Part shown: positions 39,069 through 48,647 of the stretch, piece by piece
How positions within the stretch are numbered: position 1 is the first letter of the stretch
Layout: each line of letters opens with the position of its first letter
NCBI GenBank assembly: GCA_038521345.1
Contig: JBCBKU010000013.1
Coordinates: 13,484-77,483 of the forward strand
DNA from: Pseudomonadota bacterium
GTDB taxonomy: Bacteria; Pseudomonadota; Alphaproteobacteria; Rhodobacterales; Rhodobacteraceae
Direction of reading: 5' to 3'
Length of the DNA stretch: 64,000 nucleotides
Notes under the pieces: generated by a model
Told to the model about the DNA's origin: nothing
Seen by the model: the letters and a program-made list of their open reading frames with translations, nothing else
The model's database searches: none
Translations under genes and position numbers: made by a program

Positions 39069-40226
39069 CTACCGCGCAGCCTCGAGGATCGAGCAGTAAT
39101 TGGCCACAGCCGAGCCACCCATGTTGAAGACAGCCCCGAGCGCAGCGCCCTCTTTCTGCATTTCGCCTGCATTGCCTGTGACCTGACGCGCCGCCATGAC
39201 ATGCATGGAGACACCCGTAGCCCCCACCGGATGCCCCTTGGCCTTTAGCCCGCCCGAAAGGTTCACGGGCAGCCGCCCGTCGGGCCCTGCCGCACCGTCT
39301 GCCACGACCCGCGCGCCTTGACCGGGCTCGGCAAGGCCCAGCGCCTCGTAGATCATCAACTCTGCGATGGTGAAACAGTCATGCACCTCGGCAAAGTCCA
39401 GATCGTCGAGCCCAATCCCAGCCGCCTCGTATGCCCCGCAGATTGCCCGCCCGGCACCTTCCAGCGCGGTCTTGGATTTGCGCGACATGGGCAGATAATC
39501 GTTCACATGGACCGCCGCCCGGAATGCGACAGACCTGTCGAATTCGCCCTCCATATCGTCGGCGACCATCACCATCGCGGCCGCCCCATCGGTGATCAGC
39601 GAGCAGTCGGTCAGCCGAAGCGGCGCAGCAACCAGGGGGTTCTTCTCGGAGACTGTGTTGCAGAACGTGAAACCAACGTCCTTCTGCATCTGCGCCAGCG
39701 GGTTCTTCAGCGCGTTCCGGTGGTTCTTGGCCGCGATCTGCGCAAGCGCTTCGGATTGATCACCGTGGGCCTGAAAATAGGCCGCCGCGTATTGCCCAAA
39801 GATCTGCGGAAAGTTTAGGCCGCCTTCCTCTGCCTGATAGGACGCGCCGCCAAGGGCCGCGGCGACCCCCTTGGTGTCAAGTTCGGTCATCTTCTCGGCG
39901 CCCAGAACCAGCGCGACCCGGACCCGGCCCGATCGAATGGCATCCCGCGCGGCATAGACCGCCGCCGAGCCACTGGCGCATGCGTTCTCGACACGCGTCG
40001 CCGGCGTCCAGCGCAGCGCATCATCCATGTTCAGAATCAAGGAGGAAGCGAATGCGTCGGGCACCATGCCGTTGTTAAAATGCCCAAGCCAGATCGCATC
40101 GACATCCGAGGCGCTCAGCCCGGCGTGGGCAAGCGCCTCGCGCGCAGCCTCCGCGATCAGCGCTTCGATCCCCTCTTCGCGGCGACCGAACGCCGTGTGA
40201 CCCCAGCCGACTATCCGCGCGTCCAT
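39069..40226 (-). CDS. Thiolase-family protein (SCP-x/non-canonical acetyl-CoA acyltransferase type)
   Basis: ATG at 40226 has a GGAGGTGAT RBS. Active-site region VENACASGSAA and C-terminal GGLKAKGHPVGATG. Confidence 0.8.
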   Translation of the reverse strand: MDARIVGWGHTAFGRREEGIEALIAEAAREALAHAGLSASDVDAIWLGHFNNGMVPDAFASSLILNMDDALRWTPATRVENACASGSAAVYAARDAIRSGRVRVALVLGAEKMTELDTKGVAAALGGASYQAEEGGLNFPQIFGQYAAAYFQAHGDQSEALAQIAAKNHRNALKNPLAQMQKDVGFTFCNTVSEKNPLVAAPLRLTDCSLITDGAAAMVMVADDMEGEFDRSVAFRAAVHVNDYLPMSRKSKTALEGAGRAICGAYEAAGIGLDDLDFAEVHDCFTIAELMIYEALGLAEPGQGARVVADGAAGPDGRLPVNLSGGLKAKGHPVGATGVSMHVMAARQVTGNAGEMQKEGAALGAVFNMGGSAVANYCSILEAAR

Positions 40227-40236
40227 TATCACCTCC

Positions 40237-41640
40237 CTAGGTTTCATGTGCCGCCGCGAGCGCGGCAATGCGCCTCGCGACGATGTCCCGCGGCGGGCAC
40301 GAGCGGCGAGTCTCAAGGCTCACATGCACCAGCAACTGGTCACAGGTGGCCAGAACCGTTCCGTCCGATATCCGTCGCATTTCATGCGCAAGACCGAGTT
40401 TCTTTCCATCGCCCGTCGCCACGCGGGTCAGAACCTCAATCCGATCACCGGCATGGGTTTCGGCGCGAAAGGCCGTCTTGGTCTCTACCGTAAAGTAACT
40501 GAACGATTGTTCAATATAACTCTGCCCCGCGCCCACGTGCTCGAGGACCGCATCGGCGGCATCGGAAAAGACTTGGCCGTACCTGCTCTCGTTCATGTGG
40601 CCGTTCTGATCTGTCCAGTCGATGGGCACGACGCGTCGTGCGGTGCAGAGCGGTGTTTCGTCCCGAAGCGGTTCGCGCATAGTCGCCTCGTGTTCGGCAA
40701 GGCCATGACCAGCCGCCGCCTTGCGAGCCTTCAGAGCCCGCAACAGAGCGACAAGGTTGTCGTCCCGCAGTTGTTCCAGTTCGGGAATCGACCGGTCGCC
40801 GGATTGGGCATCCGATTGCGACGCGATGCGTGCAATCAGCTCTGCATCCAAATCGGGCACATCCATGAGCTTGGTCCAAGGCCAGGCCAGGGCCGGTCCG
40901 AACTGCGCAAGAAAGTGCGCCATCCCGCCCTCACCGCCCGCGATGCGATAGGTTTCGAACAAGCCCATCTGCGCCCAGCGCAAGCCAAACCCAAGCCGGA
41001 TCGCGTCATCGATCTCGGCGGTCGTGGCGATGCCATCCTTCACCAGCCAAAGCGACTCGCGCCAAACAGCTTCGAGCAACCGGTCCGCAATATGTGCATC
41101 TATCTCGGCCCGAACGTGCAACGGCGCCATTCCGACCCCTGCAAGGACCTCCTCGGCGCGCTCCACCATCTCTGGCGGGTTCGCGGGCGATGCCACAACC
41201 TCAACCAGGGGAAGCAGATATACCGGATTGAATGGATGGGCGACGAGGATTTGTGCTGGCCGCGTGGCGCAGGATTGCAGAGCACTTGGCGTGAAACCCG
41301 AAGTGGACGAGGCAAGGATCGCATCCGGATCGCAATGCGCCTGCACCGTCTGGTAGACCTTCATTTTCAACTCGATCCGTTCGGGAACGCTTTCCTGCAC
41401 CCAATCTGCCCCCGCCACAGCCTCGGACAGCGTTTGGGCAAAGGTCAGGCGCCCTTCGTCGGGCAGCCCCGTATCATAGATCATCGGCAGCGCGCGCCGC
41501 GCGGCGTCAATCACACGCATCAAACGCTGATCTGCCCCGTCCTGAGGATCAAAGACCACGACATCCCAGCCCATGAGGAGGAAGCGCGCGGCCCATCCAG
41601 CTCCGATTACTCCACATCCAAGGATTGCCGCCTTCATCAT
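40237..41640 (-). CDS. lcdH: L-carnitine dehydrogenase fused to a hotdog thioesterase domain (3-hydroxyacyl-CoA dehydrogenase family)
   Basis: MMKAAILGCGVIGAGWAARF Rossmann N-terminus and the HPFNPVYLLPLVE motif. A C-terminal domain of about 150 aa resembles 4HBT-type thioesterases. GGGAGG RBS. Confidence 0.7.
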   Translation of the reverse strand: MMKAAILGCGVIGAGWAARFLLMGWDVVVFDPQDGADQRLMRVIDAARRALPMIYDTGLPDEGRLTFAQTLSEAVAGADWVQESVPERIELKMKVYQTVQAHCDPDAILASSTSGFTPSALQSCATRPAQILVAHPFNPVYLLPLVEVVASPANPPEMVERAEEVLAGVGMAPLHVRAEIDAHIADRLLEAVWRESLWLVKDGIATTAEIDDAIRLGFGLRWAQMGLFETYRIAGGEGGMAHFLAQFGPALAWPWTKLMDVPDLDAELIARIASQSDAQSGDRSIPELEQLRDDNLVALLRALKARKAAAGHGLAEHEATMREPLRDETPLCTARRVVPIDWTDQNGHMNESRYGQVFSDAADAVLEHVGAGQSYIEQSFSYFTVETKTAFRAETHAGDRIEVLTRVATGDGKKLGLAHEMRRISDGTVLATCDQLLVHVSLETRRSCPPRDIVARRIAALAAAHET

Positions 41641-42187
41641 GTTCTGCCTCCCGTTACGACGAGGCAGGGGATCACCGTCCGGCACTCGAGACAAGCGCGT
41701 TAACGACAATAGGGGCCGTGGGACGACAACGGTTCCGCGCGGATCAACAATGTCGGAGCGGCTCGGTTCACGGATTCGGGATAGAGCGTTTCGCGTTGTG
41801 CGCTCATCACCTTAAGCGTCATTAATTCCACGTAAGAACAACTTATGATTGAGTATTGCATGTTGCGGCTTGGGGGACAGTATAGGTGATTGCGAACCTT
41901 CGTTTCCGAATCGGGATCATTCGATACTTTTTTTCGCCATAATCCTTAATCGGGCGTGACAGGGTTCAATGCGCCATGGGAAATTTTCTGATGATCACGG
42001 CGACCCTACTAGGGTAAATGCTCTCTGCGGCCGGTGATGGTCGGGCCATTAGCTCGACGGGTGGGCAGACGGCGTAACGAGTAATGCGGGTGTGGAGTAC
42101 GCTCCGCCGCATCGCCTGAGAACGACGGAGGCGTTTGCTTCGCACGTTCTAGGGAGGTGCAGCCCAAAAAGTAAAAGGTCGAAGGTA

Positions 42188-42715
42188 GTGGACATAGTTC
42201 AGTCAGTACAAGCTGCGCTTGCACGAGCCGAGGCAGCCGAAGACCGTACGCAGGCAGATGCACATCCCGAAGCTTCGCATGATGCAGACCCGGCCGTGCG
42301 GATCGTGGGAATTCACGCCAATGTCCGGGTCTCGACATCGTTCGGTGACGTCCCGGCACAATTGCTCCGGCCACGCGACATGCTGCGCACTCGCGACGGG
42401 AACTTTGCGACCATCCGCCGGATCGAGAAAGTGGGACTCGACGAGGACTACCTGAATTACCATCCCGAGGCTCAGCCGGTATTGGTCCGTGCCGGGGCCT
42501 TTGGTCAGGATTGTCCGCGGCAGGACGCCCTGTTCGCGCCCGGCCAGTTGCTGCAGACCGAAGCGCGCCGTTTCGGAACGGAATTTCGCTGCGCCGCCGA
42601 ACTCTCGGGACATCCCAAGGTCATGCGCAGCCCAACCGCGCCAATCATCTACTACGTGATCGATTGCGGTCGCCCTGCAACCATTTTGGCGGAGCGGGTC
42701 TGGACCCAGATCTGA
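42188..42715 (+). CDS. Hint (Hedgehog/intein-like) domain protein; start uncertain (alternative GTG at 42092)
   Basis: The segment VSTSFGDVPAQLLRPRDMLRTRDGNFATIRRIEKV...QPVLVRAGAFG...DALFAPGQLL follows the Hint_2 pattern common in Rhodobacteraceae. Confidence 0.5.
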   Translation: MDIVQSVQAALARAEAAEDRTQADAHPEASHDADPAVRIVGIHANVRVSTSFGDVPAQLLRPRDMLRTRDGNFATIRRIEKVGLDEDYLNYHPEAQPVLVRAGAFGQDCPRQDALFAPGQLLQTEARRFGTEFRCAAELSGHPKVMRSPTAPIIYYVIDCGRPATILAERVWTQI

Positions 42716-42813: not shown

Positions 42814-43845
42814 TCACCGTGCATCCAAGTCAGGACGTGGAACGATCTCGTACCCTCCGTCCGCATGGGCAAGAGTAACACGCCCGCGTCCGCCGTTCTT
42901 TGACGCATAAAGCGCACGATCGGCGGCCTCCAGTACCGCGTCCGGCTCATCGTTGGCGTAGTCCGAGCTGATCGCCACACCAATGCTGCCGGAAATCCGG
43001 CAGACTTGATCCTGAAACGGGATCGGTTCTTCCAGCCGGGCAATGACCCGGTTCCCGACCGCCGCCAGTCTTTCACGATCCGATATCCGGTCCAGGACGA
43101 CAACAAACTCATCGCCACCAAGGCGCCCGACCCCGTCGGTGTCCCGGGTCTCCTCGATCAGAATTCTCGCGACCCTCTGAAGAACGTGGTCGCCTGCCGC
43201 ATGGCCCATCGTGTCGTTCACTGCCTTGAAGTAGTCGAGATCGACGATCATCAGTGCGTATGCTTTCGACCGGGCCCGGGCGCCCAGGATGGCATTTTCG
43301 ATCCCGCGCCGGTTCATCACCCCAGTGAGCGTGTCGGAAAAAGCCTGAGTTTCAGCGGCATTCTTGGCCGTGTCCAATCGCTCGCTGAGATCACGCCACG
43401 CGTCCATGGCGCCGCGATTGGCCTCGACGAGGTAAAGCATTTCGATCGTGAGATCCGTTGCCGAAAAGTCCGCGGCCGTTAACGGATAGACCCGCAGCGC
43501 TTCAACGATGCTGATCCCGAAAGAGACGTTGATCAGATGCCCATTGCAACCGTCGGACACAACGAGGCCTTTCAGGTGGATCTGCGGATTGTCCTCAAGC
43601 TCGAGCCGCAAATGCCGTTCGCCCCGACTGACCAGATCGGCGAGCGACGTATAGGCCATCGGGCGACGGACACGGAACGCTGCCTCAAGCTTGCGCCCGA
43701 CATAGCTGCGCGGCGCCGACATCTTGGCGATGGTCGGACCCACATGCCGGATTACGCCATCCGCTCCGACGCTGAGATGCATGGGCATCAACGTATCAAG
43801 AGCCGCCTCGGGCAGCGAACAGATCGGAAGACTGGGGGCGTTCAC
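42814..43845 (-). CDS. Diguanylate cyclase with an N-terminal HNOBA/PAS-like domain and coiled coil (HNOBA-CC-GGDEF)
   Basis: The N-terminus MPMHLSVGADGVIRHVGPTIAKM...FRVRRPMAYTSLADLV mirrors the sGC PAS/HNOBA pattern. RDTD I-site and GGDEF are intact. The GTG start overlaps the H-NOX stop (GTGA). Confidence 0.8.
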   Translation of the reverse strand: MNAPSLPICSLPEAALDTLMPMHLSVGADGVIRHVGPTIAKMSAPRSYVGRKLEAAFRVRRPMAYTSLADLVSRGERHLRLELEDNPQIHLKGLVVSDGCNGHLINVSFGISIVEALRVYPLTAADFSATDLTIEMLYLVEANRGAMDAWRDLSERLDTAKNAAETQAFSDTLTGVMNRRGIENAILGARARSKAYALMIVDLDYFKAVNDTMGHAAGDHVLQRVARILIEETRDTDGVGRLGGDEFVVVLDRISDRERLAAVGNRVIARLEEPIPFQDQVCRISGSIGVAISSDYANDEPDAVLEAADRALYASKNGGRGRVTLAHADGGYEIVPRPDLDAR

Positions 43846-44441
43846 GAGACCACTACTCCGCCAAGGTCAAAATCGCGCCCTTCCGCAAAGCGTTCTTCCG
43901 CGACGGTAATCTCGATATGCACGTCCCCGACCTCTCCCTGAGAATCTTCGACGAGTTCGATCAGCGCCAACGCGCCGTATTCATCCGCCATCGCACGCAA
44001 GAGGCCCATGATGACACGGTCGAACCCCGCAGGGGCAGTCTGGCAAACCAATCGGAACGGATCGCCGTCGCCTCCCGAAAGTTCCATGACCGGCAAGACG
44101 AGGTCCGGAACGGCAAGGCGCATCCGATCCCGAAGATCATTCAGCGAATGCAGAAAATCGATGAAGTCGATCCCGCCAAAACGTAGCAACCGGCGCACGG
44201 CAGAGATGTTCGGCGACGATACCAGATGAGTTCCGAGGTCTTCCAAAAGGACCTCGGTCGGTTTGTCCAACAGCGTCGAGGCTGCATCAATGACGCGGTA
44301 GGCAACGTCGTCGTCATAGACGAACATCGGCTCGAACCGCGGTTGGGGAAGCTGTGCTTCCCGCGCGACGGCGCCCCAGAGCTCTTCACCGTACCTTCGG
44401 CGCAAGAACGCCTCGATCGAACTGTTCACGAGACCGTGCAC
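43842..44441 (-). CDS. H-NOX (HNOB) domain protein, divergent, lacking the canonical heme ligands
   Basis: GTG at 44441 has a GGAGGGGAG RBS and gives MHGLVNSSIEAFLRRRYGEELWGAVAREAQL, which is collinear with the sGC beta1 N-terminus. 199 aa. Confidence 0.75.
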   Translation of the reverse strand: MHGLVNSSIEAFLRRRYGEELWGAVAREAQLPQPRFEPMFVYDDDVAYRVIDAASTLLDKPTEVLLEDLGTHLVSSPNISAVRRLLRFGGIDFIDFLHSLNDLRDRMRLAVPDLVLPVMELSGGDGDPFRLVCQTAPAGFDRVIMGLLRAMADEYGALALIELVEDSQGEVGDVHIEITVAEERFAEGRDFDLGGVVVS

Positions 44442-44518
44442 GAACTCCCCTCCGTCGTCCCGCGGTGACCTTAGGGCGCAGCGTTTAACAAATGCCAAAC
44501 CGTCAGGTGCAACGGGGA

Positions 44519-46075
44519 TCAGAAATCGGTGGGAGCGCCGCCTTCTGCCTTTCTGCGAGCCACGAAAGCGGCCAGTTCTTCGCGAATACCAGAGTCCATC
44601 GGGGGTTCCTCGAAATCCGCGAGGATTCCTTTGAAGACGTGATGCGCGCGTTCGGCGGTCCAAGTCTCGCCAGCCAGGGCCCAGCCTTCATAGTTCCGCC
44701 AGTCCGAAACGAAGGGTTGATGGAAGGCGGTCGTGTACCGGTCCTGCGTGTGTTGCAGGCCGAAGAAGTGCCCCGTTTCGCCGACTTCCCGGATGGCTTC
44801 CACCGCCAGATCGTCCTCGGCGGTCGATACGAGGGCAGGTTCGAAATAGCGCTGGATCATCTGCAGTACTTCGCAATCCATGACGAACTTCTCTGGGCTC
44901 GCAATCAGCCCGCCTTCAAGCCAGCCAGCCGCGTGATACACCATGTTGGTCCTTGACTGGACCGCGGCCCAAAGCGAATTCGACGTCTCCCACATCGCCT
45001 GACCGTCCGGCACGTTGGCCGCGCAGACGCCCGACGAGCGAAGCGGCAGGCCATAAAACCGCGCCATTTGGCCGGTCATCTGAGTTGCGCGCATGTATTC
45101 CGGCGTGCCGAACGCAGGCGCGCCCGACTTCATGTCGACGTTCGACGTAAAGGTCCCGATCACGCATGGCGCACCCGGCGTCACCCATTGGAAAAGCGCG
45201 ATGGCCGACAGCGCCTCTGCCAGCGACTGCGCCACAGCGCCGGCCATGGTCACAGGCGCCATCGCACCGGCCAGAGTAAAGGGTGTCACGACCACGGCTT
45301 GTCCCCGGCGGACACAGCGCAAGCATCCGTCGATCATGGGATGGTCGTGCTTGAGCGGCGAGGTCGAGTTGATGTTCGTATACATGTGCGGGCGGCTCTG
45401 GAACATCGCTTCGTCCAAGCCCCCGGCTATGCGCACCATCTCCATCACGTCTTCGATCCGCTCTTTGCCGAGCGAATAGGCATGCATAACCTTGTCCGTA
45501 AGCGTCAGCTTGTCGAACAAAACATCCAGATGCCTGACACTGGCGTGCAGGTCCACCGGTTCGACAGGATAACCCCCAGCGAAGTGAATACAGTTGAAGT
45601 ACTGGGTCAGCTTCAGAAGGTTTCGGCACTGTTGCCGCGTACCGGCAACCTTGCCGGTTTCCAGATCCCAGTAATTCGGCGGCGACGACACGTTCCCGAA
45701 CACTAGCGATCCACCTCCGATGGTGAGTTCGCGTGCCGGGTTGCGCGGCGAGATCGTGAATGAGGCCGGCGCGCGGGCAAGCATCTCCATCACCCAATCC
45801 CGCCCCATCCGAACGTTCTGACCTTCGACCGTCACACCGATCTGGCGGAAAAGCTCCAACGCCTCGTCGTTCAGAAACTCGATTCCGATCTCTTCGAGGA
45901 TGCGCATCGCCGCATCATGGATCGCATGCACACCCTCTTCGGTCAGCGGTTCGATGGGGCGATCGGTGTTGAACGGTACCCGCCACTCGCTTTGGTGGAT
46001 GGCGGCGCTGCCTCTGCGCGAAACGCCCCCGGCCCGCCCCCCGGATCGCTTCCGTCTCACTTCCCGTTCGGCCAT
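44519..46075 (-). CDS. MttB-superfamily (trimethylamine methyltransferase-like) protein, non-pyrrolysine type
   Basis: 518 aa, uninterrupted ORF with no in-frame TAG. TIM-barrel MttB-like motifs. GGAGGA RBS. Confidence 0.8.
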   Translation of the reverse strand: MAEREVRRKRSGGRAGGVSRRGSAAIHQSEWRVPFNTDRPIEPLTEEGVHAIHDAAMRILEEIGIEFLNDEALELFRQIGVTVEGQNVRMGRDWVMEMLARAPASFTISPRNPARELTIGGGSLVFGNVSSPPNYWDLETGKVAGTRQQCRNLLKLTQYFNCIHFAGGYPVEPVDLHASVRHLDVLFDKLTLTDKVMHAYSLGKERIEDVMEMVRIAGGLDEAMFQSRPHMYTNINSTSPLKHDHPMIDGCLRCVRRGQAVVVTPFTLAGAMAPVTMAGAVAQSLAEALSAIALFQWVTPGAPCVIGTFTSNVDMKSGAPAFGTPEYMRATQMTGQMARFYGLPLRSSGVCAANVPDGQAMWETSNSLWAAVQSRTNMVYHAAGWLEGGLIASPEKFVMDCEVLQMIQRYFEPALVSTAEDDLAVEAIREVGETGHFFGLQHTQDRYTTAFHQPFVSDWRNYEGWALAGETWTAERAHHVFKGILADFEEPPMDSGIREELAAFVARRKAEGGAPTDF

Positions 46076-46138
46076 GGCGTCCTCCGTCCTCTGACGGGCA
46101 GCATGGCCTGTCCGATCCTATCCGTCCCGGTCCGGAAC

Positions 46139-46160
46139 CGACGCTTGGGCGTCGTTTTTT
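46139..46160 (+). terminator. Canonical intrinsic terminator oriented for the + strand
   Basis: CGACGC-ttgg-GCGTCG followed by TTTTTT. On the minus strand the same hairpin is preceded by A6 and has no U-tract. Confidence 0.45.
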
Positions 46161-46161
46161 C

Positions 46162-46881
46162 TCAGCGGCCGGCGGCTTCACCTTGCAGCCATCCCGGCAG
46201 GTCCGCGATGCTTGGCAACACGGCATCTGCCAAAGGCGCGAGATCGGCGCGCACGGCAAGACCAGTGAGGACACCGATTGTACGAAACCGCGCGCCCCGG
46301 CCGGCCAAGAGGTCGTGTCGGCTGTCTCCGACCATCACGCAGTCATCCGGCGCCATTTTGGTGGCGCGGGCAAACGCGGCGCATTGGCCGGGTTGCGGCT
46401 TGGCACCGAAGCCGCTGTCATGGCCGGCGATGAATGCAAAGCGGTCAAGGATGCCGGCTGCAGCAAGGTGCGCACGGGCGGGCTCTTCCGCGTCATTCGT
46501 GGCGACACCCAGAACCAAACCCATGTCAGCCAGGCGGTCGAGCAGAGGGGCAAGTGGGGCCGCCGGGGCCATCGGCGCGTCGATTGTGCTTTCGACCAGG
46601 CGCGCGATCAAGGACGACCGCAGGAACCGCCCGTCCAGATAAGGCATGAGCAAGTCAGCGACTTCATCTGGCGTGCCAGCAATGGCCGGACTGCTCGGAC
46701 GGAACCCTCTTTCGGCCGTATCGAACCCAATGGCATCGGCCATTGCATCGCCGAGGTCAACATCGCCCGCCGCGAGTTCCTCGAGCATGTCCTCGGCCCA
46801 GCCCGCCCAGCTTTCCTGAAAGTTGAATAGCGTCCCATCCTTGTCGAACAGAATTCCCCGGATTGCCGTCACGCGCGCCAC
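46162..46881 (-). CDS. HAD-superfamily hydrolase (phosphoglycolate phosphatase-like)
   Basis: Motif I ILFDKDGTLF, GVATND, and motif IV MVGDSRHD. GTG start at 46881 or 46872. Confidence 0.75.
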   Translation of the reverse strand: MARVTAIRGILFDKDGTLFNFQESWAGWAEDMLEELAAGDVDLGDAMADAIGFDTAERGFRPSSPAIAGTPDEVADLLMPYLDGRFLRSSLIARLVESTIDAPMAPAAPLAPLLDRLADMGLVLGVATNDAEEPARAHLAAAGILDRFAFIAGHDSGFGAKPQPGQCAAFARATKMAPDDCVMVGDSRHDLLAGRGARFRTIGVLTGLAVRADLAPLADAVLPSIADLPGWLQGEAAGR

Positions 46882-46882
46882 C

Positions 46883-47161
46883 TTAGGTCCAATGTACGTT
46901 CTCGCCGCCAGGCAAGGCGGCACGCGCGCGCAGCGGCTGCTCGAGCCCGCGCCCGGACGCCTCGCAAAATCCGGTGACCCAGGCATCATCCATCAGAATG
47001 AAATCGAGCACAGATCCAAGAAACTCCGCGTCGCCCGCCCGTGTACGCAGATCATCAGGCGAAACACCCGTGGCGCCCATGAACGTGCCCAGTATTTCTT
47101 GATCCGCCGCGATCCACGCCAAGGCCTCAGCCGCCAGCGTCTCGGCTGTTCTCCGCTCCAT
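46883..47161 (-). CDS. DUF3572-family small protein
   Basis: ATG at 47161 gives a 92-aa product MERRTAETLAAEALAWIAADQEILGTFMGATGVSPDDLR. The longer ORF N-terminus is Ser/Arg-rich shadow sequence. Confidence 0.6.
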   Translation of the reverse strand: MERRTAETLAAEALAWIAADQEILGTFMGATGVSPDDLRTRAGDAEFLGSVLDFILMDDAWVTGFCEASGRGLEQPLRARAALPGGENVHWT

Positions 47162-47255
47162 CTCCCGGCGCTCCTTCGGTCGGCAAGGCTTTCTTAAGCA
47201 TTCTCCGAAATAGCTCGGGGCGCCAGTTACAATTCGAATAAAAGGGAGAACGTTC

Positions 47256-48647
47256 TTGGGAGGTCGCGTCCTCGTCGCAGCCGAGTCGGCGACACACCGG
47301 ATCCTGATCCGCGTCAAGCTCGCGGCCGGGCGGTATGTCATCGACACGGCAAAGTCGGGCCAAGAGGTGCTGGCACATGCGCGGGCCGAGACGCCGCCCG
47401 ACATCGTCATCGTCGACAACGGCATGTCCGATCTCAACGGTAGTGAAATCTGTCGGCAACTGAAAGCTGACGTGCGAACACGGTCCTTGCCCGTTATTGT
47501 TGTGACAGGGTCGGAGCACGATGCGGCCGCGACACTGTCCGCGCTAAAGTCCGGCGCTGACGAAGTTCTGGTCCCTCCCTTAGATGACCTGAGCCTGATC
47601 GCGCGGATAAGAAGCCTGATGCGCGCGCGTAAAACGACCGAGGCGCTTGGCCAGCGTGAGCGGACCGTGGCCGAGCTTGGGTTCGCCGAACCCGCGCCGG
47701 CCTTCGCGCCTGCAGGGCGTGTGGCCCTGATCGCCCGCGAGCGCAACCGCAGCAAGATGTGGCACCGATGCCTTGCCCCGCTTGTGCGCGCCCAACTCGA
47801 AGTCGTTGATGCAGATACCGCCTGGTCCGCGGATCCCGACCAACATGGCTCAGATGTCTACGTGATCGATGCCGAGCTCGAGACGCCCGGCGAAGGTCTT
47901 CGCCTTTTGGCGGAATTGAGAAGCCGCCCAGCCACGCGCCACGCGGCAATTCTGATCGTGCACGCGCGTTCGGACACAATGGGCGCGGTCATGGCGCTCG
48001 ACCTTGGTGCCAACGATCTTCTGACCGAGGGCTTCCCGGCTGAAGAACTCGCCATTCGGATCCGTACGCAACTTGGCCGAAAACAAGCGGATGACCGGCT
48101 GCGCGCCTCGGTCGAAGAAGGCCTGCGTCTTGCCGTCCTTGATCCGTTGACCGGGCTTTACAACCGCCGCTACGCCGAGGCGCATGGACGGCGCATCGCA
48201 GCATCTGCGCGCGACTCCCGTCGTCCCTTTGCCGTGTTCGTCGCCGATATCGATCACTTCAAGACGATCAACGATCGGTTTGGACACAGGACCGGAGATC
48301 AGGTGCTGAAATGCGTTGCCGATCGTCTGCGAGACCGACTGAGAGCCGGCGATCTTCTTGCACGAATCGGCGGTGAAGAATTCCTCGTCCTTCTACCGGA
48401 CACCGACCACGCCACCGCGCTTTCAGCAGCCGAGCGTCTGTGTCTCGCGATCGGCGGCGCGCCAATCCCGGTACCGGACCAATCCAAAGCAATTCCGGTC
48501 ACGATCTCGCTCGGAGTTTCGACTTGGGACCCGTCCGCCTGCGCCAAGCCAGGTCTTGGCAGGCTGATCGACGCTGCGGACCGGGCGTTGTTTCAGGCGA
48601 AGACTTGCGGTCGCAATCAGGTGACCGTCAGCCGCACCGCAGCCTGA
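47256..48647 (+). CDS. PleD-like response regulator diguanylate cyclase (REC-REC-GGDEF)
   Basis: TTG start with an AGGGAG RBS. Two receiver-like domains, RAGD I-site, GGEEF motif. Collinear with Caulobacter PleD. Confidence 0.85.
   Translation: MGGRVLVAAESATHRILIRVKLAAGRYVIDTAKSGQEVLAHARAETPPDIVIVDNGMSDLNGSEICRQLKADVRTRSLPVIVVTGSEHDAAATLSALKSGADEVLVPPLDDLSLIARIRSLMRARKTTEALGQRERTVAELGFAEPAPAFAPAGRVALIARERNRSKMWHRCLAPLVRAQLEVVDADTAWSADPDQHGSDVYVIDAELETPGEGLRLLAELRSRPATRHAAILIVHARSDTMGAVMALDLGANDLLTEGFPAEELAIRIRTQLGRKQADDRLRASVEEGLRLAVLDPLTGLYNRRYAEAHGRRIAASARDSRRPFAVFVADIDHFKTINDRFGHRTGDQVLKCVADRLRDRLRAGDLLARIGGEEFLVLLPDTDHATALSAAERLCLAIGGAPIPVPDQSKAIPVTISLGVSTWDPSACAKPGLGRLIDAADRALFQAKTCGRNQVTVSRTAA

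Follow-up and report, generated by a model that had tools for sequence, protein, structure and literature searches.

A histidine-less H-NOX gene coupled to a cyclase gene

Can an H-NOX domain govern a diguanylate cyclase (DGC) when the residues that normally hold its haem have been lost? This question is raised by two overlapping minus-strand genes in a 64,000-nucleotide stretch of contig JBCBKU010000013.1, which belongs to a Rhodobacteraceae assembly listed as Pseudomonadota bacterium (GCA_038521345.1); the whole stretch is called the window hereafter. The upstream gene encodes an H-NOX-like protein of 199 amino acids and the downstream gene a cyclase of 343 amino acids, whose GGDEF domain points to cyclic di-GMP (c-di-GMP) as the output. 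As predicted from its sequence, the locus is most likely an operon of two translationally coupled genes that belongs to the "Group 5" H-NOX / DgcA-Dgc1 type of Rhodobacterales, and the H-NOX-like protein is probably a haem-free regulatory partner of the cyclase.

Both open reading frames are as the first-pass annotation, made from the letters of the window, had drawn them. With 199 codons, the H-NOX-like gene opens with GTG at 44441 and closes with TGA at 43842-43844. The GTG start of the cyclase gene at 43845 overlaps that stop by 4 nt (GTGA, in which the last two bases of GTG are shared).

Fold and haem-ligand columns of the H-NOX-like protein

The Pfam HNOB family (PF07700) matched the 199-aa protein at 82.9 bits, against a cut-off of 25.5 (E = 3e-23; residues 2-156, model positions 1-156 of 163), a check that upheld the H-NOX homology proposed by eye. 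Among proteins of solved structure, the best relative detected by HMMER was the H-NOX of Nostoc sp. PCC 7120 (E = 1e-19), and soluble guanylate cyclase (sGC) beta1 was also matched (E = 4e-12). A profile built from 43 family members reached the same two proteins at E = 1e-26 and E = 2e-18, respectively. An AlphaFold2 model computed from the family alignment had a mean local confidence score (pLDDT) of 85.4 and a predicted template modelling score (pTM) of 0.81. Foldseek superposed this model on the Nostoc H-NOX structure 2O09 with template modelling scores of 0.81/0.88 and a root-mean-square deviation of 2.4 Å, and its leading matches were all H-NOX structures.

In the HMMER alignment with the Nostoc protein, the block around the ligand columns is free of gaps; R104 falls on Nostoc His105, and C133-Q-T135-A-P137 falls on Nostoc Y134-Q-S136-T-R138. 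By this alignment, the window protein has Arg104 in place of the proximal haem-ligating His, and C133-Q-T-A-P137 in place of the Y-x-S-x-R motif. A register shift that would bring His98 to the haem, which the first-pass annotation had itself singled out as fatal to its alignment, was excluded: the single-sequence and family-profile HMMER alignments both hold the one-residue offset. Since the two registers agree, the by-eye alignment, with Arg at the proximal column and C133, T135 and P137 in the propionate motif, was correct. Helical periodicity suggests that His98 lies off the haem-facing side of its helix.

Other features of the pocket are retained. P117 corresponds to Pro118 of the Nostoc H-NOX, the Pro that distorts the haem. 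The positions that we take to line the pocket stay hydrophobic without bulkier replacements, and Nostoc W74 is replaced by Leu. The retained Pro and hydrophobic positions hint at a cavity that may persist. Because neither the proximal His nor the Y-x-S-x-R propionate clamp is present, the 199-aa protein most likely keeps the H-NOX fold and carries no haem. A parallel loss of haem ligands is seen in the haem-free H-NOX domains of sGC alpha subunits.

Domain organisation of the cyclase

The N-terminus of the window cyclase gave a marginal match to Pfam HNOBA (PF07701), with 24.2 bits in the full-length protein and 27.4 bits for the isolated N-terminus against a cut-off of 23.4; the match covers residues 11-75 and only positions 3-67 of the 216-position model. 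Despite this marginal score, the HNOBA assignment is sound on comparative grounds, because 40 of 44 orthologue N-termini match the Pfam family individually (best E = 2e-11) and a profile of all 44 N-termini, searched against all PDB sequences, retrieved the PAS segments of sGC and the H-NOXA histidine kinase of Nostoc punctiforme. Six of its eight matches were of these two kinds, from sGC beta1 or alpha1 or from H-NOXA: 6PAS_B (Manduca sGC beta1, residues 211-352, E = 4e-6), 2P08/2P04 (E = 6e-6) and both chains A and B of 6JT0 (human sGC) were found. The two remaining matches had E values of 0.14 and 0.93, and one of them was another histidine kinase. The annotation had read this N-terminus as an sGC-type HNOBA segment, and the profile searches bear it out. 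Bacterial HNOBA genes are said always to adjoin an HNOB gene.

A full HMMER scan of 1.8 billion representative sequences found 455 relatives of the N-terminal domain, nearly all of them proteins of 320-350 aa that begin with it. A word-indexed homolog search with 43351-43845 returned no match, although all 80 genome loci surveyed below encode the domain; the index is thus insensitive to so diverged a domain.

At the end of the HNOBA region and in the first part of the linking helix, residues D126, F127, T130, D131, L137, Y138 and E141 are invariant in the 44 orthologues. The alignment of the N-terminal profile with sGC beta1 extends to profile position 136. Residues 127-323 align with the coiled-coil linker and GGDEF domain of the phytochrome cyclase 5LLW, whose linker we take to set cyclase activity. 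We infer that the helical segment of residues ~131-167 forms a coiled coil. The single-sequence AlphaFold2 model of the cyclase had a pLDDT of 47, with residues 1-147 below 50, too low for any reading of the fold there.

The catalytic domain matched Pfam GGDEF (PF00990) at 135 bits (residues 168-321). The motif search placed the RxxD I-site at R234-D-T-D237, five residues before the GGDEF motif at 243-247, so that the intact RxxD and GGDEF reported in the first reading stand. From its catalytic and I-site motifs, the second gene is predicted to encode an active-type DGC.

Survey of the Group 5 family

Ligand columns were tabulated for 193 non-redundant relatives of the window H-NOX-like protein, and gene neighbourhoods were surveyed at 80 genome loci with 4-kb flanks. 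At the proximal column (104), Pro predominates with 138 relatives (72%), followed by Gln (13, 7%), Arg (11, 6%) and His (11, 6%), while 20 relatives carry other residues; His was thus missing at the ligating column in 182 of the 193 (94%). A survey of these columns had been proposed in the first-pass annotation, and its outcome was Pro in most proximal positions and no YxSxR (columns 133, 135 and 137) in any of the 193 relatives. The His and Pro counts agree with the published Group 5 figure (PMC8738867).

Other residues are close to invariant. His2 is present in 192 of the 193 relatives (99%), His98, which is specific to this family, in 185 (96%), and Cys133 in 176 (91%). Two new invariant family motifs, RRLLRFGG and LRAMAD(D/E)YGAL, were found. 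A published review remarks that Group 5 has no conserved Cys; this fails for the main clade, given the frequency of Cys133. At the positions where one residue is conserved at 90% or more (64 columns, including a few gap columns), the window protein breaks with the consensus just four times; it also has a short loop insertion relative to the family. Among the matches listed, its exact sequence occurs only in the metagenome-assembled "Pseudomonadota bacterium" and two sequencing runs; beyond these, identity does not exceed 57%, and the relatives all come from Rhodobacterales. The family is large: at least 6599 clusters at 90% identity had E values of 1e-20 or lower, and at least 564 species genomes contain a relative of the window H-NOX-like protein.

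The association with the cyclase is strict. A full-length cyclase homolog, including the N-terminal domain, lies directly downstream of the H-NOX gene at all 80 loci, and the two genes overlap by 4 nt at 59 of them. RxxD stands five residues before GGDEF in 78 of 79 cyclase orthologues, the exception being a gene cut by a contig end. By these measures of conservation, the window pair is a diverged but intact and constrained lineage of Group 5.

The 11 relatives with a proximal His form a subgroup of their own interest. All 11 have His or Tyr at column 137, where His occurs in 13 of the other 182; none has YxSxR. Among 104 extra matches found with a profile of this subgroup, 60 carry His or Tyr at the proximal column. 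This subgroup is a candidate for residual haem binding, as judged from these residues.

A single protein of 607 aa (P0259), retrieved by the search of representative sequences with 43351-43845, joins a His-less H-NOX domain (residues 2-164) through a Pro/Ala-rich linker of ~60 aa to an HNOBA-like region (258-418) and a GGDEF domain (422-574). It is either a natural fusion or a gene-call artefact, by read-through or frameshift, in G+C-rich DNA.

Comparison with named systems

His-less H-NOX proteins beside cyclases are already in the literature. Group 5 was described as a very large H-NOX cluster in which fewer than 10% of members have the proximal His and most have Pro (PMC8738867; Lee-Lopez & Yukl, Biosci Rep 2022). 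In Paracoccus denitrificans, hnoX (Pden_3719) overlaps dgcA (Pden_3720) (PMC5588039; Kumar & Spiro 2017), and that report, citing Iyer et al. 2003, states that the H-NOX lacks the axial His "like the H-NOX from Rhodobacter sphaeroides". The first-pass annotation had supposed that, in the bacterial H-NOX/DGC pairs described so far, the H-NOX binds haem. This premise of novelty is outdated, because pairs with a His-less H-NOX have been published (PMC5588039, PMC8738867, PMC11536421). The window protein is similar to the P. denitrificans and Cereibacter sphaeroides proteins, shares the family motifs, lacks the proximal His and has a GGDEF neighbour. On these grounds, the window locus is assigned to the published Group 5 and is not a new kind of system.

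The P. denitrificans locus, on chromosome 2, which is filed as a plasmid (3001-4529 of the stretch examined), has the same two-gene layout with a 4-nt overlap. Its 189-aa H-NOX and the overlapping 320-aa DgcA share 38% (E = 8e-38) and 36% (E = 2.5e-48) identity with the window H-NOX-like protein and the window cyclase, respectively. Both H-NOX proteins lack the proximal His and YxSxR and share the motifs MHGLVN, RRLLRFGG and LR(A/G)MAD(D/E)YG; both cyclases have the same HNOBA-like N-terminus, RxxD and GGDEF. The two H-NOX proteins differ at the proximal column (Arg in the window protein, Pro in P. denitrificans), at column 98 (His versus Glu) and at column 133 (Cys versus Ala), and the MTTB and HAD neighbours present in the window are absent at the P. 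denitrificans locus. Lacking His98 and Cys133, the P. denitrificans H-NOX may be an atypical model for Group 5. The C. sphaeroides protein (P0068), with Pro in the proximal position, shares 54% identity with its window counterpart.

Experimental data exist for the P. denitrificans member, the only Group 5 H-NOX to have been purified. The purified H-NOX was folded and colourless and contained no iron or zinc by inductively coupled plasma optical emission spectrometry (PMC11536421; Islam et al., J Proteome Res 2024). It bound hemin only non-specifically and acquired no haem even with aminolevulinate or hemin (PMC11536421), so that the haem test proposed in the first-pass annotation (purification, Soret band, hemin) has already been done on this member. 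Deletion of hnoX gave a biofilm-deficient strain, apparently independently of nitric oxide (NO) (PMC11536421). As hnoX deletion lowers biofilm formation and dgc deletions raise it, the genetics suggest that the H-NOX inhibits DgcA (PMC5588039).

In Dinoroseobacter shibae (Bedrunka et al. 2018), another member of the Rhodobacterales, an H-NOX gene (Dshi_2815) is reported to adjoin the gene for Dgc1, a DGC that the H-NOX inhibits; the layout resembles that of the window. Both loci also have a second, PleD-like DGC gene a few genes off. We take dgc1 to be Dshi_2814 and dgc2 to be Dshi_2820. Quorum sensing induces hnox and dgc1 in D. shibae, whose HNOX protein is reportedly under the control of the CtrA phosphorelay. 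Neither homolog search had Dshi_2815 among its 120 listed matches, and it is not one of the 80 loci surveyed.

In the window pair as in sGC, the modules follow the order H-NOX, PAS/HNOBA, coiled coil (presumed in the window cyclase) and cyclase. For the H-NOX-like protein and for the cyclase N-terminus (E = 4e-6) alike, sGC beta1 ranks with the nearest proteins of solved structure. The window system is split into two polypeptides and has a GGDEF domain, with c-di-GMP as output, instead of a class III cyclase. The window cyclase is presumably a homodimer, whereas sGC is an alpha/beta heterodimer. No class III cyclase domain is present on the H-NOX chain, and the window system is sGC-like in layout only. 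The proposal that the locus repeats the sGC order in split form, with c-di-GMP as output, is borne out for this layout by the Pfam and profile searches.

Among the best solved matches of the window proteins are the Nostoc sp. PCC 7120 H-NOX (Alr2278) and the N. punctiforme H-NOXA histidine kinase (2P04). The Nostoc type resembles the window pair in having a separate H-NOX protein and an HNOBA-containing effector. The Nostoc H-NOX, in contrast, is a haem binder with His105 and YxSxR in place, and the effector of this type is a histidine kinase where the window has a DGC. In Legionella (Hnox1-Lpg1057) and Shewanella woodyi (H-NOX with a DGC/phosphodiesterase), a stand-alone H-NOX directly regulates an adjacent c-di-GMP enzyme, as is proposed for the window pair. 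Unlike the window protein, these H-NOX proteins are canonical haem-based NO sensors, and by their descriptions HNOBA is not reported for the enzyme partners. The S. woodyi H-NOX was matched by fold (Foldseek) only and not by sequence at E = 0.001; no Legionella entry was among the matches listed.

Proposed regulation and alternative explanations

The view that the H-NOX-like protein acts as a haem-free regulatory partner of the cyclase draws on the predicted fold, the loss of the ligands, the pairing at all 80 loci, the sGC-type HNOBA region and the intact GGDEF and RxxD motifs. The H-NOX-like protein would dock on the HNOBA/helix module of a cyclase dimer, as the H-NOX domain does on the PAS and coiled-coil segments in sGC. 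Docking could govern the pairing of the two GGDEF domains, with a restraint on c-di-GMP synthesis as the likeliest effect, and product inhibition through the RxxD site would act on top of this restraint. Inhibition is the expected sign of the control because the P. denitrificans genetics and the reported D. shibae biochemistry both point there. The 607-aa single-chain protein is consistent with a physical cooperation of the two partners. The input would lie outside canonical haem-NO chemistry: the partner protein might act through its abundance, or a non-haem signal might be sensed. Possible inputs are the amount of partner without any ligand, for which the quorum-sensing and CtrA control in D. 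shibae is of note, a non-haem ligand, metal or thiol-redox centre, and non-canonical haem. A haem-free partner covers the first of these and part of the second.

Several points weigh against a haem-free regulator. The regulation of DgcA by the P. denitrificans H-NOX could not be demonstrated, as c-di-GMP was below detection (PMC11536421). The negative haem and zinc results from P. denitrificans may not transfer to the window protein, because His98 and Cys133, conserved in 96% and 91% of the family, are missing from the P. denitrificans protein. The D. shibae H-NOX, the one Roseobacter-group H-NOX tested biochemically and compared here by description only, is reported to be a haem protein that responds to NO. 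The strong conservation of the pocket region argues for some ligand over a pure scaffold.

Two alternatives give the pocket a ligand. The window protein might still be a haem-based NO sensor that binds haem non-canonically, for example through His98, His2 or Cys133, with NO switching the cyclase off as in D. shibae. In its favour, the D. shibae H-NOX is reported to sense NO through haem and to inhibit the neighbouring Dgc1, and the D. shibae locus-tag order, with dgc1 and dgc2 placed as we take them to be, fits the synteny of the window. The near-invariance of the three candidate residues in the 193 relatives (99% for His2, 96% for His98 and 91% for Cys133) and the retention of P117 and the hydrophobic pocket positions point the same way. 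However, the propionate clamp occurs in none of the 193 relatives and 94% of them lack His at the ligating column; His98 stands six residues before that column and, from helical periodicity, probably off the haem-facing side; and the P. denitrificans member stayed free of haem even with aminolevulinate or hemin (PMC11536421). We consider this possibility quite unlikely. Alternatively, the pocket may have been re-used for a metal or thiol-redox site (His2, His98, Cys133) or for a hydrophobic or tetrapyrrole-like non-haem ligand, with a signal perhaps linked to the methylamine metabolism of neighbouring genes. The family-specific near-invariance of the same three residues and the motifs RRLLRFGG and LRAMAD(D/E)YGAL speak for re-use, as does a pocket that stays hydrophobic and is not filled by bulkier residues at the positions that we presume to line it. 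At 64 of 80 loci the H-NOX gene is preceded on its own strand by an MTTB-family gene, and Vibrio cholerae H-NOX offers a precedent in its Cys-based, haem-independent redox sensing (PMC7108781). Against re-use, the P. denitrificans protein contains no iron or zinc and functions in vivo although it has neither His98 nor Cys133 and no MTTB gene beside it, and a gene order shared within a single bacterial order may reflect descent and not function. Re-use of the pocket is thus a tentative proposal, on the unlikely side. Most Group 5 H-NOX proteins, including the window protein, keep the His98 and Cys133 that the purified P. denitrificans member lacks; that they bind something, be it haem in a non-canonical way, a redox or metal centre or some different ligand, is likewise possible but rather doubtful.

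The loss of every canonical ligand residue and a nearest relative, among the matches listed, of only 57% identity might also suggest a decaying, non-functional H-NOX remnant upstream of the cyclase. A remnant is hardly credible in view of the full-length open reading frame with its good ribosome-binding site and of a consensus kept at all but four of the positions conserved at 90% or more. The size of the family, with its thousands of clusters and hundreds of species genomes, the strict pairing with its mostly 4-nt overlap and the strong deletion phenotype in P. denitrificans (PMC5588039, PMC11536421) also stand against it. The conservation data rule out a pseudogene.

Genomic neighbourhood

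Upstream of the pair (44519-48647), the same strand encodes the MTTB-family methyltransferase, a HAD hydrolase and a DUF3572 protein, and a gene for a PleD-like REC-REC-GGDEF protein is divergent from these. The sequence GGAGGGGAG sits inside the 77-nt gap between the stop of the MTTB-family gene and the H-NOX-like GTG. The features are collected in Table 1.

Table 1. Coordinates of the features discussed, as positions in the window.
Feature	Position	Strand	Basis
MTTB-family methyltransferase gene, 77 nt upstream of the H-NOX-like gene	44519-46075	-	Pfam MTTB, 740 bits
Shine-Dalgarno-like GGAGGGGAG 5' of the GTG start	44445-44453	-	Direct sequence reading
H-NOX-like protein gene, 199 aa, Group 5, histidine-less (predicted)	43842-44441	-	Open reading frame, Pfam HNOB, Nostoc H-NOX match, AlphaFold2
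His2 codon	44436-44438	-	Family alignment
His98 codon CAT, six residues N-terminal to the proximal column	44148-44150	-	Family alignment, direct check
Arg104 codon CGG, column of the haem-ligating proximal His (His105 in Nostoc H-NOX and sGC beta1)	44130-44132	-	HMMER alignment
C133-Q-T135-A-P137 codons, in place of the Y-x-S-x-R haem-propionate motif	44031-44045	-	HMMER alignment
C133 codon TGC	44043-44045	-	Direct check
P137 codon (column 137)	44031-44033	-	Family alignment
Diguanylate cyclase gene, 343 aa, HNOBA/PAS-like region, signalling helix and GGDEF (predicted)	42814-43845	-	Open reading frame, Pfam
HNOBA (H-NOX-associated, PAS-like) region, ~residues 11-130	43456-43815	-	Pfam HNOBA, family profile against PDB
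Helix from HNOBA to GGDEF, ~residues 131-167, ending in a DxLT linker	43345-43455	-	Orthologue conservation, alignments
GGDEF catalytic domain, residues 168-321	42883-43344	-	Pfam GGDEF
I-site RDTD	43135-43146	-	Motif search
GGDEF motif	43105-43119	-	Motif search

The order DUF3572, HAD, MTTB, hnox, dgc, with the divergent PleD-like gene, is conserved across many Rhodobacterales genera, and the same order is annotated on the Phaeobacter plasmid CP104104. Where the MTTB gene accompanies the pair, it is 71-81% identical to that of the window, against roughly 50% for the H-NOX gene. The HAD gene was found at 55 of the 80 loci, and the PleD-like gene, upstream on the opposite strand, at ~40 of the 80, scoring well above a bare GGDEF match. 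The legend of a published Group 5 neighbourhood figure has GGDEF, HAD and MTTB among its abbreviations. The MTTB gene is taken here as context, which may reflect either a functional linkage or inherited synteny.

A sigma-70 promoter and terminator scan returned nothing informative and detected no terminator-like site on the coding strand between the MTTB and H-NOX genes. No CtrA box (TTAA-N7-TTAA) was found upstream of the operon; the single match in the 64 kb lies elsewhere and is fewer than expected by chance.

Downstream of the cyclase (39069-41709 and 42092-42715) are a Hint_2-domain gene on the plus strand, a gene for a fusion of 3-hydroxyacyl-CoA dehydrogenase and 4HBT thioesterase, and a thiolase-like gene. 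The fusion has an architecture like that of L-carnitine dehydrogenase. Together with the MTTB gene, these predicted functions suggest a neighbourhood of quaternary-amine catabolism.

Biological implications

Profile searches support an sGC-type HNOBA assignment for the "unknown" N-terminal domain of the cyclase partner. The window locus adds one more diverged but intact member to Group 5 and is no more tractable for the question of the signal than the published members; the facts from the survey may guide the choice of a better experimental model than P. denitrificans. If Group 5 proteins do bind a ligand, that signal could be coupled to c-di-GMP synthesis and would possibly be related to the pathway of the conserved upstream MTTB-family methyltransferase. 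Group 5 is a very large H-NOX family found across the order. In marine Rhodobacterales it controls c-di-GMP, biofilm formation and behaviour linked to quorum sensing, yet it lacks the chemistry by which H-NOX proteins are defined.

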